Assembly: GCA_016716715.1 (NCBI GenBank) | Contig: JADJVE010000006.1 | Location: 129,259 to 193,258, forward strand | Direction: 5' to 3' | Length of the DNA: 64,000 nucleotides | Source of the DNA: Acidobacteriota bacterium | Lineage (GTDB): Bacteria > Acidobacteriota > Thermoanaerobaculia > UBA5066 | Shown here: piece after piece, positions 2,910 to 16,084 of the stretch | Layout: each line of letters begins with the position of its first letter | Numbering within the stretch: position 1 is the first letter of the stretch | Translations under genes and position numbers: made by a program | Notes under the pieces: generated by a model | Told to the model about the DNA's origin: nothing | Databases searched by the model: none | The model's input: only the letters and a program-made list of their open reading frames with translations

Positions 2910-5900
2910 ATGCGCCGTCGGTGGAACGCCCGGATAGGTTTCCTTCTCTTCATCCTCCTCGTAGTGCCGGGAGGTCTTGGCTGCTGTGTTGGAAGCGAAA
3001 GGCTCTTTGCCTGGCACTGCTGGTACCCGGAGGATCATCGCGGCGAACTGCGCACCCGGCTCCCGATGGTCGACGTCGGAGCTCTCGCGGCGCCGGCCGA
3101 GCTGAACGGAGGGGCGGTCTCGGACCTTGGCGAGCTTCGAGCGCTCGGATGCGACCTGTCGTGGATGGCGCCTCCCGCCGGATCGGTCCTCGCGTATGGC
3201 GAGTCCTCGTGGATCGCATCCCCGTCCGTTTCGAACGGCTGGGGATTCATTCCGCTTCGCGCGCTGACCGGCCGCGCTTCGACGGCGCGGGCCGCTCGTT
3301 GCGGGGGCGACTGGCTCTACACGGCGACAGACCGGGGGCTCGAGTCCGCTTCGCTCCGGTCGGGGTCCTCCCGCCGCTTCTCGTCGAGCTTCGCTCATTA
3401 CGCCACGGGTGCTTCAGCCGTCCTGCCCCTCGCGGACGGGACCGTCCTTGTGGGCCTGACCCAGACACCGTCCACGGGCGGGGCGAGCCCGGTTCTTCGC
3501 TGCGACCCGGCGACAGGAAGGTGTGACGCGGCGGCGAGCGGGATCGTCGTCTTCGGTGCGGATCGCGCGCTCCTGCTCATGACGGCCGCCGACGGCTCGA
3601 TCCTTCTCGTCATGCGCGCTTCCGGGGCCTGGCGTTCCACCGACGGCGGCCGGACGTTCTCGCTGTCCAGCACCGGCCTGCCCTCGAACCAGGTCTCCTC
3701 TGCCGCAGACGTGGACGGCCACCCGGCCGTCGTCGTGTTCGGCGCCGTCTGGCGCAGCACGAACAGCGGGGCGTCCTGGTCGATCGCGCGCGCGGGGAGC
3801 ACACCCGCGGACCTTCCGCCGACGACGCTCGGGGCTGTCGGCGGCGGAAACGGAGTCCTCCTCGCGGGAGTGAACGGAAGCACGACGAGCAACCCGGCCA
3901 TCTATCGGTCCACGAACGGCGGGGCGTCCTGGACGGGCCCGCACGCGGGAATCGGCGGCCGGACTCTGAACCGGCTTCTGGCGACACCCGAGGGCACGTG
4001 GGCCGCGACGAACGCGGGCGTCTTCTTCTCGGGAGACGGCGGCGTGACATGGCAGGGTCGAAACGCCGGGCTCACGAACCTGACCGTCCCCGGCATGGCG
4101 GCCTGCGGGGGTTCGATCCTCGCGGCGACGCCGGGCGAGGCGAGCGGGCTCTATCGGTCCACGAACGGCGGCGCGACGTGGACGACGGCCGGTCCCTCCT
4201 TTGCGAACCAGAACATCGGCGTCCTCGCGGCGACCGGATCGCTCGCCTTCGCGGGGGGGGCCAGCCAGTCCCTCAATTACTCGACGGACTGCGGCGCGAC
4301 CTGGATCGGCGCGTACAACCTGCCGGGAAACACGTTCCCGCTGACCCTGACCGCGGCGGACGGGTATTTCTATGCCGCGAATCTGCTCGGCACCAGCCTC
4401 TATCGAACCTCCGACATGTTCCTGGGATGGCAGGCGGTCTCCCCGCCGGTCCCGTTCGCAGCGAGGACCCTCGCGGTCAGCGGGAGCAACATCGTTCTCG
4501 CGAGCGGGTCCGTCCTGTACCGGTCGATCGGCGGGGCTCACTACGTGGCGGGAGGGGCCCTCTTTCCGGGCGGCCTTTGGGAAGTTTCGAAGGTGGCGTT
4601 CACCGGGAGCACGCTCTGGGCCGCCGTCGGCGGGGCCTCGGGCACGCAGTACGGTCTCTTCCGAAGCACGGACGTCGGCGCGACGTGGGCCCGATCCCAG
4701 ACAGGCATCCCGAACGACGAGCCCGTCTACGACATCTCGGCTTCCGGCTCGCGCCTCTACGCGGGCACGCGCGCCGGTCCGTACGTCTCCGACGACGGCG
4801 GCGCCACCTGGACGCTCGTCTCCGAGAGCGCGCGCGGTCTCGCCGTGCGCTCCATCCTCGCATCGGGAGGAACCCTTCACCTCGGCACGGCGGGCGAGAG
4901 CGTTCTTTCGCTTCCGACGATCGGGGCCACGCGCCGGCTCGTACCCGTCGTCCTCGACGTCGACACGGGCACGACCCGCTACACGACCGACATGAGCGTC
5001 ACGAACCGCGGGACGTCCGACACGCAGGTGACGATGACGTACACGCCGTCGCTCGGCTCGGGAGGCGGCTCCGTGAGCGTCCCCGTGAGAGCCCGCACGC
5101 AGTTCGACGTCCCCGACGTGATCGGCTATCTCCGCCAGAACGGAGTTCCCGTGGCGACCGACGGGCAGCAGGCCGGAACGCTCCTCCTCTCGTTCACAGA
5201 CGTCTCGGACCCCGAAGCCGTCGGCGTCCTCGCGCGCACGGCCGCGGCCACCACCGCGCCGCAGCCCGCGGGCCGGGCCGGGCTCGCGTACGCGGCCATC
5301 GATCCGGACGCGGCGTCGGCCGGGACGCTCCGCGTCTACGCCCTGCGCGAATCCGCGACGGACCGCTCCAACGTGGCCGTCTACAACACCTCCAGCCAGC
5401 CGGTCACCGTCGAGGTGAAGGCCGTCTCCGGCGACGGCAGCGGCGCAAGCGCCATCGTGGCCGCCGCCGACGTGCTGCCCGCGTGGGGATGGAAGCAGTA
5501 CAACCGCGTCCTGAACACCGCCGGCATGACGAACGGATGGGTCGAGGTGAAGAGAACCTCCGCCGCCGGCTCCTTCTCGGCCTATGGGGTCATCAACGAC
5601 AACGGCACGAACGACGGCTCCTTCGTCACACCCAATGCCGTCGAGCCGCGCCCGCTCTTCATGAACGTTCCGGTTCTCGTCGAGACGGGAGCTTTCCTCA
5701 GCGAGCTCGTCCTGACGAACGGCTCGACGAAGCCCGGCGACTTCGTCCTGACGTACGTCGAGGCGCTCGAGACACCCGGCCCGGGAAACCAGAGCATCCT
5801 CATCACGCTCCCGCCGAAGACCCAGCGGATCATCCCGAACGCCATCGACTGGCTGCGCAGCCACAACATCGCCGTCGGCGCCGCCGGCGGCGCCGACGCC

Positions 5901-6380
5901 GGCGCCCTGAACGTCTTCGTTTCGTCGGGAGCCGCGGTGGGCGAAATCTTCGCGGGCTCGCGCACCGCCGCGCCCTCTCCCGCCGGCGGCCAGTTCGGCC
6001 TCTTCTCGTCCGCGGCCCTCGCGGGCGACGAGGCGGCGGCGACGGCCTTCCTCTACGGCCTGCGCGCGGATGCGAACAACCGCTCGAACGTCGCGGCGGT
6101 CAACACGGGTTACGGCGCCCAGGCAGGACCGATCACGCTTCTCTTCGAGATCTTCGACGGCGCGGGCGGAGGCGTGCGCGCCAGCCAGTCGATGACGCTC
6201 GACCCGGGCGAGTGGGGGCAGCTGAGCGGCCCGCTCGCCCAGGCCGGCGTGAGCTCCGGCTGGGTCAAGGTCTCCCGCACGGCCGGAAGCGCCCCGTGGA
6301 TCGCCTACGGAGTCGTGAACGACGGAGGCCAGCCGGGCCAGAGGACCGGCGACGGCGCCTACGTGCCGATGGCGCGATGA
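2910..6380 (+). CDS. Large secreted BNR/Asp-box repeat protein with three C-terminal repeated modules of unknown function
   Basis: GGAGGAAGAAA lies upstream of the ATG. The N-terminus is a signal peptide (MRRRWNARIGFLLFILLVVPGG). There are at least 9 SxDxGxTW-type repeats (YRSTNGGASWT, FRSTDVGATWA, SDDGGATWT ...). The C-terminal about 500 aa carry about 150-aa repeats ending ..SGWVEVKRTSAAGSFSAYGVINDNGTNDGSFV / ..SGWVKVSRTAGSAPWIAYGVVNDGG. Confidence 0.8.
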   Translation: MRRRWNARIGFLLFILLVVPGGLGCCVGSERLFAWHCWYPEDHRGELRTRLPMVDVGALAAPAELNGGAVSDLGELRALGCDLSWMAPPAGSVLAYGESSWIASPSVSNGWGFIPLRALTGRASTARAARCGGDWLYTATDRGLESASLRSGSSRRFSSSFAHYATGASAVLPLADGTVLVGLTQTPSTGGASPVLRCDPATGRCDAAASGIVVFGADRALLLMTAADGSILLVMRASGAWRSTDGGRTFSLSSTGLPSNQVSSAADVDGHPAVVVFGAVWRSTNSGASWSIARAGSTPADLPPTTLGAVGGGNGVLLAGVNGSTTSNPAIYRSTNGGASWTGPHAGIGGRTLNRLLATPEGTWAATNAGVFFSGDGGVTWQGRNAGLTNLTVPGMAACGGSILAATPGEASGLYRSTNGGATWTTAGPSFANQNIGVLAATGSLAFAGGASQSLNYSTDCGATWIGAYNLPGNTFPLTLTAADGYFYAANLLGTSLYRTSDMFLGWQAVSPPVPFAARTLAVSGSNIVLASGSVLYRSIGGAHYVAGGALFPGGLWEVSKVAFTGSTLWAAVGGASGTQYGLFRSTDVGATWARSQTGIPNDEPVYDISASGSRLYAGTRAGPYVSDDGGATWTLVSESARGLAVRSILASGGTLHLGTAGESVLSLPTIGATRRLVPVVLDVDTGTTRYTTDMSVTNRGTSDTQVTMTYTPSLGSGGGSVSVPVRARTQFDVPDVIGYLRQNGVPVATDGQQAGTLLLSFTDVSDPEAVGVLARTAAATTAPQPAGRAGLAYAAIDPDAASAGTLRVYALRESATDRSNVAVYNTSSQPVTVEVKAVSGDGSGASAIVAAADVLPAWGWKQYNRVLNTAGMTNGWVEVKRTSAAGSFSAYGVINDNGTNDGSFVTPNAVEPRPLFMNVPVLVETGAFLSELVLTNGSTKPGDFVLTYVEALETPGPGNQSILITLPPKTQRIIPNAIDWLRSHNIAVGAAGGADAGALNVFVSSGAAVGEIFAGSRTAAPSPAGGQFGLFSSAALAGDEAAATAFLYGLRADANNRSNVAAVNTGYGAQAGPITLLFEIFDGAGGGVRASQSMTLDPGEWGQLSGPLAQAGVSSGWVKVSRTAGSAPWIAYGVVNDGGQPGQRTGDGAYVPMAR

Positions 6381-13180: not shown

Positions 13181-13875
13181 GCTCCGCGGCAGCGGGAGAG
13201 CCGACGTATCCCTGGAAGGAGATTCCGGGGTCGTCGCACGTCATCCTCCTCGAAAGGGTGCTGGCACGGGGAAGGGGCCTTGCGGTTCTCGACCTCGGGT
13301 TCGGGGCCGGCCACTTCGGGGAGCGCATTCGTCCGGCGTGTCGCTACCTCGCGGGCATCGAGCTCGACCCGCGCGCGGCCGCGGAAGGCGCCCGGTTCTT
13401 CGACGACGCCGTAACGGGCGACATCTTCGAAGGAATCTCGACGCCCTGGAAGGAGCCGTTCGACGTCATCGTCGCGGGCGACGTCCTCGAGCATCTCCCC
13501 CGCCCTGGCGAACTCCTCTCGGCGCTCAAGCCGCTGCTGAAATCCGACGGAACGCTCCTCGTCTCGCTCCCGAACGTCGCAAACGTCACGGTGCGCGCCG
13601 CGCTCCTCGCGGGCCGCTTCCCGTACGCGGATCGCGGGATCCTCGACCGCACGCACGTGCGCTTCTACACGCGCGCCTCGGCCCGCGGCCTCCTCGAGGG
13701 CTCGGGGCTGCGGATCGGCTGGGAGACGGCGACCGCGATGCCCGTCGAGCTCGCGCTCCCGGCGCTCGGGACGCCTCCGCTTGCCGGGCCCGTCCGCGCC
13801 GGCGCGCGCCTCCTCGCGGCCGCCTGGCCGACTCTCTTCGGATACCAGTTCGTCTTCGAGGCGGCCCCCGCGTGA
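13177..13875 (+). CDS. Class I SAM-dependent methyltransferase
   Basis: SAM-binding motif VLDLGFGAGHFG and DVIVAGDVLEHL. The start is uncertain. I chose TTG 13177, which overlaps the nadE stop (TTGA); there is no ATG before the SAM motif. Confidence 0.65.
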   Translation: MSSAAAGEPTYPWKEIPGSSHVILLERVLARGRGLAVLDLGFGAGHFGERIRPACRYLAGIELDPRAAAEGARFFDDAVTGDIFEGISTPWKEPFDVIVAGDVLEHLPRPGELLSALKPLLKSDGTLLVSLPNVANVTVRAALLAGRFPYADRGILDRTHVRFYTRASARGLLEGSGLRIGWETATAMPVELALPALGTPPLAGPVRAGARLLAAAWPTLFGYQFVFEAAPA

Positions 13876-14648
13876 GCGCCGGCGCCCTCGACACCCGGAC
13901 ACGGCGGGAGGCCGCGCCGTCGCGCAGCGCCGTCGACCTCACGATCGTGATCCCCGCGTACAACGAGGAGGCTCGGCTGCCCGCCTCCCTCGGCACGATC
14001 GCGGCATACCTCTCGGCCCGGGCTTCCGCGCCGCGGATCGAGGTCCTCGTCGTGGACGACGGTTCCTCCGACGCGACGGGACCGCGCGCCGAGGAGGCCG
14101 CGCGGCGGCACGCCCTTCCCCTGCGCCTCCTGCGCCTCGCGGAGAACCGCGGCAAGGGCGCCGCGGTGCGCGCGGGCTGCCTCGAGGCGGCCGGCGCGCT
14201 CGTCCTCGTGTCGGACGCCGACTTCTCGACGCCGGTCTACGAGTGGGAGAAGCTCGCCGCGTCCGGCGCACCCGTCGCGATCGGCTCGCGCGCCCTCGAC
14301 GAGGCGCTCGTCAAGGAGAAGCAGCCCTTCTTCCGGCAGGCCATGGGCAAGCTCTTCAACCGGCTCGTCCGTCTCGTCGCCGTGCCGGGCATCCACGACA
14401 CGCAGTGCGGCTTCAAGCTCTTCACGCGCGAGGCCGCGCGCGAGATCTTCTCGCGCGCGAAGGTGGACCGCTTCGCGTACGACGTCGAGGCGCTCCTCCT
14501 CGCGCGGCAGCTCGGGTACGCGATCGCCGAGGTGCCCGTCCTCTGGTTCAACTCGGCCGACTCGCGCGTGACGCTCCTCGGCGGCGCCCAGGCGTACTGG
14601 GACGTCCTCCGGATCCGCTTCACGACGCGCGCGCGGCGCGTCAGCTGA
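13872..14648 (+). CDS. Family 2 glycosyltransferase (dolichyl/polyprenyl-phosphate glycosyltransferase-like)
   Basis: The GTG start overlaps the upstream stop (GTGA). GT2 motifs are present: DLTIVIPAYNEE, EVLVVDDGSSD, LVSDADFSTP, TQCGFKLF. The longer ORF 13338..14648 is antisense-style junk before this point. Confidence 0.8.
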   Translation: MSAGALDTRTRREAAPSRSAVDLTIVIPAYNEEARLPASLGTIAAYLSARASAPRIEVLVVDDGSSDATGPRAEEAARRHALPLRLLRLAENRGKGAAVRAGCLEAAGALVLVSDADFSTPVYEWEKLAASGAPVAIGSRALDEALVKEKQPFFRQAMGKLFNRLVRLVAVPGIHDTQCGFKLFTREAAREIFSRAKVDRFAYDVEALLLARQLGYAIAEVPVLWFNSADSRVTLLGGAQAYWDVLRIRFTTRARRVS

Positions 14649-14940
14649 GGCGCCTGAGGAGCGGCAGGGCCGCGAGCGCGAGGAGCGCCGCAAGCGCGAG
14701 GCGTCCGGCGCCGCCGACCGCCGGGACGTCCGGCACGGACATGTCGAGGCCCGGGTCCGGCCCCGCCGCGTAGGCCGCGAGGATCGCCGGTGAGGCCGAC
14801 CCGCACGCGCCGTCCAGCAGCAGGACGTCGTACGCCCCTGCCGCCGGCGCGGCCCCTACGGGCGCGTGCGTGAAGAGCGCCGAGGGCCCTCCCGGCAGCG
14901 TCGTCGAGAGCACCGCCGTCCCGCCGAACGGCGCCCCCAC
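14641..14940 (-). other. Possible displaced C-terminal segment of the PT-linker protein (ends ..GGAGRLALAALLALAALPLLRRLS, sorting-signal-like)
   Basis: A short ORF in a different frame immediately 3' of the PT-repeat gene. It ends with a hydrophobic helix plus Arg-rich tail, reminiscent of a C-terminal sorting/anchor signal. This would be consistent with a frameshift inside the repetitive PT-coding DNA. Confidence 0.3.
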
Positions 14941-14977
14941 CGCCCAGGTCCCATTCGGGACGAGCGCGAGGCACGCC

Positions 14978-16084
14978 TCAAGCCCCGCGACAGGAACCTG
15001 TCCCGACGCATGGATCGTCCCGCCTGGCGCCGGCTTCGGCCCGTCGATCCCGACGGCCCCGCCAGGCGGCAGCGGCGTCCGCGTCGACGTCGGCGTGACC
15101 GTCGGCGTCGCCGTGGACGTGAAGGTCGACGTCGCGGTCGACGTGGGCGTCGGGGTCGCGGTCGGGGTCGCGGTCGGAGTCGCGGGTCGGAGTCGGCGTC
15201 GGCGTCGGCGTCGGTGTCGGCGTCGGCGTCGGCGTTGGCGTGGACGTCGCCGTGAACGTGGACGTCGCCGTGAACGTGGACGTCGCCGTGAAGGTGAGCG
15301 TCGGTGTCGGTGTCGGCGTCCGCGTGGGCGTCACCGTCACGGTTGGCGTGCGTGTGAACGTCGGCGTGATCGTGAGTGTCGGCGTTCTCGTCGACGTGCG
15401 CGTCGGCGTAGGGGTCGGCGTCACGCAGATCGCCGTCGCCGTCGCGACGATCGCATTGCCCGCGTCGCGGATGTTCACCGTGATGGTCCCGGAGAGGCCG
15501 TTGATGGTGAGGACGAGGTTCTGCCCCGCGTTGAGTTTGAAGGTGCCGTTCGTCAGGAACACGCCGTTCTGGAGGATCTCCCACGTCCAGTTCACCGTCA
15601 TGCTGCCGCCGACGTTCGTGATCGTGAAGGAGGAATTCAGCGCGTTGTCGCACGTTCCGGTGACCGTGACGTTCGGCGGCACGGGCGTCGGCGTGAAGGT
15701 CCGCGTCGGGGTCGGGGTCGGCGTCACGCAGATCGCCGTCGCCGTCGCGACGATCGCATTGCCCGCGTCGCGGATGTTTACCGCAATGGTCCCGGAGAGG
15801 CCGTTGATGGTGAGGACGAGGTTCTGCCCCGCGTTGAGTTTGAAGGTGCCGTTCGTCAGGAACACGCCGTTCTGGAGGATCTCCCACGTCCAGTTCACCG
15901 TCATGCTGCCGCCGACGTTCGTGATCGTGAAGGAGGAATTCAGCGCGTTGTCGCACGTTCCGGTGACCATGACGTTCGGCGGCACCGGAGTGGGCGTGGG
16001 GGTCTGGCCGCTCGCGCGGGTCGCCGGGAGAAACGCGGCGGCCAGCGCTCCCGCCAGGAGCAGGATTTTCGGCGCCCGCGTCAC
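14978..16084 (-). CDS. Secreted protein with two tandem, nearly identical ~100-aa domains followed by a Pro-Thr-rich linker; probably frameshifted or truncated
   Basis: Signal peptide MTRAPKILLLAGALAAAFLPATRASG. Domain 1 and domain 2 (TGTCDNALNSSFTITNVGGSMTVNWTWEILQNGVFLTNGTFKLNAGQNLVLTINGLSGTI.VNIRDAGNAIVATATAICV) are about 99% identical. Then come TPTPTPT linkers. The tail RDSDRDPDRDPD.. looks like out-of-frame translation of the PT repeats. Confidence 0.6.
   Translation of the reverse strand: MTRAPKILLLAGALAAAFLPATRASGQTPTPTPVPPNVMVTGTCDNALNSSFTITNVGGSMTVNWTWEILQNGVFLTNGTFKLNAGQNLVLTINGLSGTIAVNIRDAGNAIVATATAICVTPTPTPTRTFTPTPVPPNVTVTGTCDNALNSSFTITNVGGSMTVNWTWEILQNGVFLTNGTFKLNAGQNLVLTINGLSGTITVNIRDAGNAIVATATAICVTPTPTPTRTSTRTPTLTITPTFTRTPTVTVTPTRTPTPTPTLTFTATSTFTATSTFTATSTPTPTPTPTPTPTPTPTPTRDSDRDPDRDPDAHVDRDVDLHVHGDADGHADVDADAAAAWRGRRDRRAEAGARRDDPCVGTGSCRGA
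15419..16003. repeat. Direct tandem duplication, 2 x about 303 bp (>97% identical), embedded in short PT-coding microsatellite-like repeats (about 15060-15420)
   Basis: GTCACGCAGATCGCCGTCGCCGTCGCGACGATCGCATTGCCCGCGTCGCGGATGTT... occurs at about 15419 and again at about 15722 with only a few substitutions. The unit length is a multiple of 3, so it keeps the reading frame. Confidence 0.85.

Follow-up and report, generated by a model that had tools for sequence, protein, structure and literature searches.

A single extra cytosine, most probably an assembly error, splits the gene for a predicted repeat-rich surface protein in an Acidobacteriota contig

Simple-sequence contingency loci are known from the phase-variable surface genes of Neisseria, Haemophilus, and Campylobacter. 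Tripartite C-terminal sorting signals of the PEP-CTERM/exosortase type are represented in NCBIfam by TIGR02595 and by the variants VPLPA-CTERM and IPTL-CTERM, and PEP-CTERM proteins are common in Acidobacteriota. Pro-Thr (PT) linkers, or 'PT boxes', are known from secreted bacterial enzymes and surface proteins, such as the cellulase linkers of Cellulomonas fimi, and are described in Pfam as the PT repeat (PF04886). Periscope proteins and fibrillar adhesins are surface proteins in which near-identical folded domains are arranged in tandem and in variable number (PMC8201768). The gene studied here can be compared with all of these systems. It lies on the minus strand of a 64,000-nt stretch of DNA from an uncultured bacterium of the Thermoanaerobaculia (Acidobacteriota; GenBank assembly GCA_016716715.1, contig JADJVE010000006.1, positions 129,259 to 193,258), the whole of which is referred to below as the window, with positions counted from its first base. 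As in a contingency locus, this surface-protein gene is broken by a frameshift inside repetitive DNA and, as in the PT box proteins, its folded domains are connected by a long (P/T)n stretch for which the DNA consists of short in-frame repeats. The lesion was traced to one extra C, and the reading favored here, with a probability of roughly 0.7, is that this C arose in the assembly, through an indel in base calling or consensus building, and that the real product is a protein of 480 amino acids (aa).

The gene was read from a GTG start codon at 16084-16082, located 18 nt downstream of the glyA stop codon and preceded by a GAGG ~ 12 nt upstream, to a stop codon at 14643-14641 in the downstream frame (Table 1). 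The open reading frame (ORF) that begins at the GTG codon, termed ORF-A, passes from PTPTPT into RDSDRDPDRDPD..., and the +1 frame holds the rest of the PT linker (ATPTATPTATPTPTSTATSTFTSTATPTVTPTSTRTP), which resumes there as ATPTATPTATPTPTSTATSTF…, followed by a conserved domain of ~ 100 aa and then by ...VPDVPAVGGAGRLALAALLALAALPLLRRLS and the stop codon. At the junction the sense strand reads ACT CCG ACC-C-GCG ACT, locating the frame change to within a few bases, and the antisense frame defined by GC content at third codon positions (GC3) switches exactly at the CCC run. Deletion of one C from this run restored a single 480-aa ORF, and the repaired protein aligned in one frame over residues 1-460 to the orthologue at the related locus L006. 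A first-pass annotation of the same DNA had described an ORF that runs out of frame into an RDPD-type tail, together with a hydrophobic helix and RRLS encoded in another frame. Both were found as described, and the C-terminal fragment could be assigned to the same gene, being carried in frame by related homologues. If the indel is an error, the RDSDRDPD... tail of ORF-A is not real protein sequence.

Look-ups for exact copies of ORF-A and of the SHMT encoded in the window returned no record. The 147 C-terminal aa of the repaired protein matched four database proteins (60-87% identity), all of which were annotated as short ORFs of 116-152 aa. Six-frame translation of the contigs of origin showed that these short calls were annotation failures. 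At loci L003 and L004 there is one complete ORF with a signal peptide, two Cys-bounded domains, a PT linker, the C-terminal domain, and the tail; at L002, where the 5' end is lost at the contig end, three domains are followed in a single frame by the linker and the C-terminal part; and the partial contig L001 has the linker and the C-terminal domain in one frame. A scan of species-representative genomes revealed three syntenic loci (L005, L006, and L007) in metagenome-assembled genomes (MAGs) of the Acidobacteriota/Thermoanaerobaculia, at 86-89% DNA identity to the window, and L006 was a single intact ORF. Both L003 and L006 were syntenic on both sides, with glyA upstream and, on the opposite flank, genes for a family 2 glycosyltransferase (GT2), a methyltransferase, and NadE. 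The complete ORF of L004 sits in a different neighborhood, and L008, a complete ORF with one domain copy, shares glyA upstream only. Six other related Thermoanaerobaculia assemblies thus read the gene in a single frame, four as complete ORFs (L003, L004, L006, and L008) and two cut by the contig end (L001 and L002). The domain downstream of the frameshift in the window is full-length and 86% identical to its counterparts in L001 and L003.

Other frameshifted copies were found only in two MAGs, as counted by tblastn frame tracking, since nucleotide gap lists between the window and the related loci were too noisy. The locus L005 (3520-6360) contains two tandem paralogues. Gene 2 is intact, and its 3' half, which is 99% identical to that of gene 1, shows the linker of gene 1 to have a C too many (GAC[C]GTC). 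In L007 (CAVZPE010000016), at least six single-base insertions were detected in the surface-protein gene, and frame breaks were also present in the flanking GT2 and tetratricopeptide repeat (TPR) genes. Both loci belong to Microflora Danica MAGs, for which the assembly relied exclusively on Nanopore reads and a single round of Medaka (PMC12313526). The intact contigs appear to be of short-read or hybrid origin, judging by the names k141_, JGI Ga..., and 'opera' (MEGAHIT, JGI, and hybrid OPERA, respectively). As a separate observation, the N-terminal domains of the two L005 paralogues belong to different subtypes, but over the last 450 nt at the 3' end the identity is 99%.

A codon-usage Viterbi pass over the 64 kb identified one other same-strand frame change without a stop codon, near 53976. 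Here the GC3 shifts between frames at ~ 53960-54000 (real frames are at ~ 0.9, the genome being 71% GC), and the only start codon in the new frame is at 54035. The gene affected (53580-55504, plus strand) encodes a histidine kinase, with an N-terminal 137-aa domain plus a PAS-PAS-HisKA-HATPase arrangement, and is split by one missing base. The metagenome contig L009, which is 96.6% identical at the nucleotide level over 4.75 kb, reads the kinase as one ORF and has one extra base at window ~ 53990 (CCCGCGCCCC vs CCCG-GCCCC in the window), and the more distant relatives L046 and L050 also carry this base. The window has at least two single-base indels that break conserved genes, one an insertion and one a deletion, both in G/C-rich contexts. 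Within ~ 7 kb on either side of the surface-protein gene, the flanking genes aligned full-length and in a single frame to their L006 orthologues. Note that a frame hidden Markov model based on GC content only mis-assigned the strand over the PT and immunoglobulin (Ig)-like region, where the antisense GV frame has ~ 100% GC3; the codon-based version performed better and still mis-called the linker.

An assembly error is the most likely source of the extra C, because the homologues are in a single frame, the other frameshifted copies are from Nanopore-only assemblies, and the window contains a second indel at ~ 53990. The first-pass annotation had proposed either an assembly collapse of repeats or a phase-variable locus. 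An assembly artefact does stand as the most likely cause of the split, but repeat collapse does not stand as its mechanism, as units of 6, 18, and 303 nt cannot shift the frame. Note, however, that several points weigh against an assembly indel. For the surface-protein gene, the comparison drew on assembled contigs of other species, and the short-read or hybrid origin assigned to the intact contigs depends on their names. Nanopore errors are commonest in long homopolymers, and a change from CC to CCC does not fall in such a context. The L007 frameshifts are denser in the surface-protein gene (at least six in 1.4 kb) than in its flanks (two in ~ 9 kb), which could mean real decay or strain heterogeneity of this gene, and two real pseudogenes within 64 kb would not be impossible. 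It could be that the extra C is a real and very recent mutation, in which case the gene would be a young pseudogene or would make a truncated product, released and unanchored, in which the signal peptide and both Ig-like domains are followed by only half of the PT stalk and then by 69 junk residues. This is a possible but rather unlikely account. The frameshift is present in the sequence, frameshifts recur in two other lineages with the uneven density just described for L007, and an intact paralogue beside the frameshifted copy, as in L005, would relax selection; yet the frameshifted copies of known source are all Nanopore-only and the presumed short-read or hybrid assemblies all in frame, the other single-base indel of the window lies in an unrelated conserved gene, and the domain downstream of the extra C has suffered no further damage. 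A collapse or mis-join of the repeats, which would make the 303-bp or PT unit counts shown here wrong, is improbable. Repeats such as the near-identical 303-bp units and the low-complexity 6-nt array do pose assembly problems, and short-read contigs of relatives (L001 and L002) end in or next to the gene, but two domains and a linker of ~ 111-121 aa are also found in the independent assemblies L003 and L006. A collapse of this kind could coexist with an assembly indel, but alone it cannot shift the frame, every unit being a multiple of three.

Slipped-strand mispairing in the linker repeats, which in a contingency locus would switch the gene on and off or its product between anchored and secreted forms, is very unlikely. 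The lesion does lie within a repetitive tract, beside (GGCGTC)n, the exported N-terminal part would stay intact, and the window and L005 gene 1 represent two lineages with a frameshifted linker. However, slippage cannot change the frame because the repeat units are of 6 or 18 nt; the longest homopolymer is 5, and the perfect repeats of at least three copies have units of 3, 6, and 18 nt, together with one CG x3 (2 nt). The lesion itself is a single extra C between two 6-nt-periodic stretches, with no whole unit gained or lost, and the indel positions differ among the window, L005, and L007, with the homologues in frame. The proposal of phase variation through PT-repeat slippage was therefore left unsupported, with no hypermutable tract in evidence. 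Programmed +1 ribosomal frameshifting, which would join two frames that do overlap without a stop at the junction, is excluded for practical purposes because the indels fall at different places in the window, L005 gene 1, and L007 and the homologues (L002, L003, L004, L006, L008, and L005 gene 2) are read in frame without any shift. In addition, no stop codon occupies the A-site position at ACC CGC GAC, and CGC should be a common codon at a genome GC3 of ~ 94%. If the frameshifts in all three lineages (window, L005 gene 1, and L007) were nevertheless real, which seems decidedly improbable, recurrent indels in the GC-rich linker would release or silence the surface protein in Thermoanaerobaculia, and this would amount to contingency-like behavior without a classical hypermutable tract, on a fast-diverging and unmodeled Ig-like family. 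Where a frameshift is met in repetitive high-GC DNA from the assembly of an uncultured organism, the orthologues and the rest of the contig should be checked before phase variation is called. Both checks point to consensus indels here.

Table 1. Features of the surface-protein gene and of the second indel, in window coordinates.
Feature	Position	Strand	Remarks
Whole gene	14641..16084	-	Single 480-aa ORF once one C is removed
ORF-A, 368 aa	14978..16084	-	Signal-peptide-like N-terminus, two 90-aa units (…TGTCD…AICV…), Pro/Thr stretch, then out of frame
GTG start and putative Sec-type signal peptide (MTRAPKILLLAGALAAAFLPATRA|SG)	16010..16084	-	Sequence read; n/h/c-region pattern
303-bp tandem duplication	15399..15998		Tandem Repeats Finder: period 303, 2.0 copies, 96% matches, score 1137
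Cys-clamped Ig-like domain, copy 1, 90 aa, C...C	15719..15988	-	AlphaFold2, Foldseek, homologues
Cys-clamped Ig-like domain, copy 2, with two residue changes vs copy 1	15416..15685	-	Translation and AlphaFold2
Pro-Thr-rich linker	15061..15424	-	121 aa in repaired protein, 71% P+T; imperfect 6-nt repeats and perfect 18-nt x3
Frameshift site, CCC run (GGG on + strand)	15184..15186	-	One base too many for the flanking reading frames
Out-of-frame tail of ORF-A (RDSDRDPD...)	14978..15183	-	Stop at 14978-14980
+1-frame remainder of gene	14641..15183	-	
Conserved C-terminal beta-rich domain, two invariant Cys (GAVGID...CLALVPN...LLLDGACG...)	14713..15060	-	60-86% identity to P0001-P0004 regions
Hydrophobic helix and RRLS after conserved (V/I)PA(V/I) motif	14644..14712	-	Presumed membrane anchor; stop codon 14641-14643
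Second single-base indel, one base missing, histidine-kinase gene	53985..53995 (~53990)	+	Comparison with L009, L046, and L050

The repeated units of the gene were compared with each other. When best phased, 292 of the 303 bases were identical by our own count, and only four mismatches were present in a core of ~ 270 bp (15411-15681 vs +303; ~ 98.5% identity), so the '>97%' first quoted for the units is correct for the core that encodes the domain and a little too high for the 303-bp unit as a whole. Two further claims were upheld: each unit encodes one copy of a Cys-containing domain, and the downstream linker is built from short tandem DNA repeats, which were found here to be of 6 and 18 nt. 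The two 90-aa copies differ at two residues, M/T and A/T. An AlphaFold2 single-sequence model predicted two seven-stranded beta sandwiches, with a predicted local distance difference test score (pLDDT) of ~ 80 in the domains, and a Foldseek search of the PDB with the Ig-like domain model returned only generic tandem sandwiches of the Ig and fibronectin type III kind, at low template modeling scores and high root-mean-square deviations, and no specific functional lead. A word-indexed homologue search with the Ig-like domain gave no match, and an exhaustive phmmer search was needed. With one domain as the query, this search gave 116 cluster representatives (50% identity) at E<=1e-3, 67 of them at 1e-10; the matched proteins carry 1-19 matched stretches and are up to 4431 aa long. 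The modules co-occurring in the examined proteins were PKD, PD40, Big_3_5, Big_12, PASTA plus dockerin, or a sortase domain. Across 36 aligned Ig-like domains the two Cys and one Gly were invariant, and a profile of these 36 sequences matched no PDB sequence (best E 0.26).

Pfam and NCBIfam scans of the repaired protein, of one domain, and of the C-terminal fragment returned no family above threshold, and PPC (PF04151) was below its gathering threshold, scoring 22.6 bits with the whole protein and 13.7 bits with a single domain vs a cut-off of 25.9. NCBIfam scans of eight homologues likewise produced no model over the repeated domain; no Pfam or NCBIfam model reached its curated threshold there, the best being short sub-threshold or biased matches to PPC, bMG6, and LacZ_4. 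Within the 64-kb window no paralogue of either the Ig-like domain or the C-terminal tail was found elsewhere. The Ig-like domain is a widespread family that has no Pfam or NCBIfam model, and it would merit a family model of its own. An unusual architecture was encountered in one matched protein, P0012 (647 aa), which carries, besides two Cys-clamped Ig-like domains and a PT linker, a sortase catalytic domain at its C terminus (Pfam Sortase, 78.5 bits).

The relationship between the domain copies was studied at the DNA level. Within single genomes, the copies were 98% identical in the window and in L005 gene 1, 96% in L007, 90% in L004, 78% in L006, and 74% in L003. Copies at the same position in different genomes were 92-93% identical for the window vs L007 and 61-77% for the other pairs, and the identity within a genome was always above that between genomes. 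Site patterns for the window vs L007 gave 10 lineage-fixed sites, shared by both copies of one genome, vs 0 shared by position, and the other genome pairs gave 18-42 lineage-fixed vs 0-5 shared by position. The inter-domain linker is conserved in position across loci. Because of these site patterns, and because copies within a genome are always more alike than same-position copies between genomes, the domains are seen to undergo concerted evolution by gene conversion or unequal crossing-over and not to stem from a single recent duplication. Of the two options raised in the first-pass annotation, a very recent duplication or gene conversion, the latter is accordingly the better one. Between related species-level genomes the domain copy number is one (L008), two (window, L003, L004, L006, L007, and L005 gene 1), or three (L002 and L005 gene 2). 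Gene conversion or unequal crossing-over would keep the copies near-identical and would also change their number, from one to three, between relatives. The DNA of the Ig-like domains (window 15416-15988) is 67-71% identical to that of L006, and the flanking genes 89%; on these identities the domains appear to evolve much faster than the flanks or to have been exchanged. In L005 gene 2, domains 2 and 3 are identical at the protein level.

The C-terminal region was explored in the five available sequences. The beta-rich domain has 65 invariant columns, its two Cys included, and LALAALLALAALPLLRR, a hydrophobic helix with a basic cluster, is nearly invariant. AlphaFold2 modeled the domain poorly (pLDDT 55, too poor for a fold search), and the terminal helix was predicted at residues 125-146 of the 147-aa fragment with a pLDDT of 80-85. 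A scan of metagenome contigs with the C-terminal domain found nothing, and in the one tail search run, the sole match was a further member of the same surface-protein family. The NCBIfam sorting-signal models gave no match to the 147-aa fragment even at E<=10. The tail is therefore plausible as a membrane anchor, as had been suggested, but the resemblance to a sorting signal is not borne out by any curated model.

Across the homologues, the PT linker varies in length from 63 to 265 aa, with P+T making up 59-71%. In the window, Tandem Repeats Finder reported a period-6 array at 15073-15332 (43 copies, 72% matches), and the perfect 18-nt x3 repeat begins at 15239. A Pfam scan returned no PT match for the linker, probably because of composition filters. 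At the N terminus, the n/h/c-region pattern suggests a Sec signal peptide. One interpretation of the architecture as a whole is that a Sec signal peptide, two Cys-closed Ig-like domains, a 121-aa PT stalk, a beta-rich membrane-proximal domain, and the hydrophobic helix with RRLS follow one another in an exported protein that would be held in the membrane by its C-terminal helix, with the Ig-like domains displayed at the end of the PT stalk. The gene would then encode a cell-surface protein rich in repeats, from an Acidobacterium of soil or sediment, with this presumed membrane topology and a presumed adhesin-like or binding-protein-like role at the surface. The underlying biology is ordinary: an unannotated and unmodeled repeat-containing surface protein of this sort is unsurprising to specialists in bacterial surface proteins.

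In four metagenome contigs, the public gene calls keep only the last 74-148 aa of the protein and place antisense ORFs over the Ig/PT part (L002:1-1472, L003:1370-2800, L004:3651-5528, and L008:~170-1267). The antisense Gly-Val frame of (ACGCCG)n also has ~ 100% GC3, and this probably misleads the gene finders. This protein family thus largely escapes public gene calling, with the consequence that protein databases under-represent PT-linked surface proteins from high-GC bacteria.

Some neighboring features were also recorded. A GT2 gene (13872-14648, plus strand) converges on the surface-protein gene, the two 3' ends overlapping by 8 nt, and this convergent pairing is kept in L001-L003 and L005-L007 and not in L004 or L008. 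Glycosylation of the PT stalk by the GT2 enzyme would be no more than a guess. The window opens with the gene for a large CHAT-domain protein, at 263-2863 on the plus strand (Pfam CHAT, 184 bits), and in the ORF that follows, at 2910-6380, the N-terminal ~ 700 nt have atypical codon usage.

The comparison with the described systems can be summarized as follows. Unlike contingency loci, the gene has no hypermutable tract, its repeat units are multiples of three, and the position of the lesion is not conserved among relatives. The tail is similar to that of PEP-CTERM proteins in having a short conserved motif, (V/I)PA(V/I), a hydrophobic helix, and RR at the extreme C terminus; it differs in having no PEP motif and no NCBIfam sorting-signal match. 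As in Periscope proteins, tandem Ig-like domains of high DNA identity (98% in the core in the window) are present in one, two, or three copies among relatives, a predicted N-terminal export signal is combined with a putative C-terminal anchor, and intragenic recombination is the likely driver. In contrast to Periscope proteins, the 1-3 copies form no long rod, a disordered PT stalk serves as the spacer, the N-terminal, distal place is taken by the repeated domains with no separate ligand-binding head domain, the variation was seen in comparisons between species, and the anchor is a hydrophobic helix with RR and not LPXTG. The behavior of the gene thus resembles that of Periscope genes and its architecture differs, so that it is not placed in the Periscope class.

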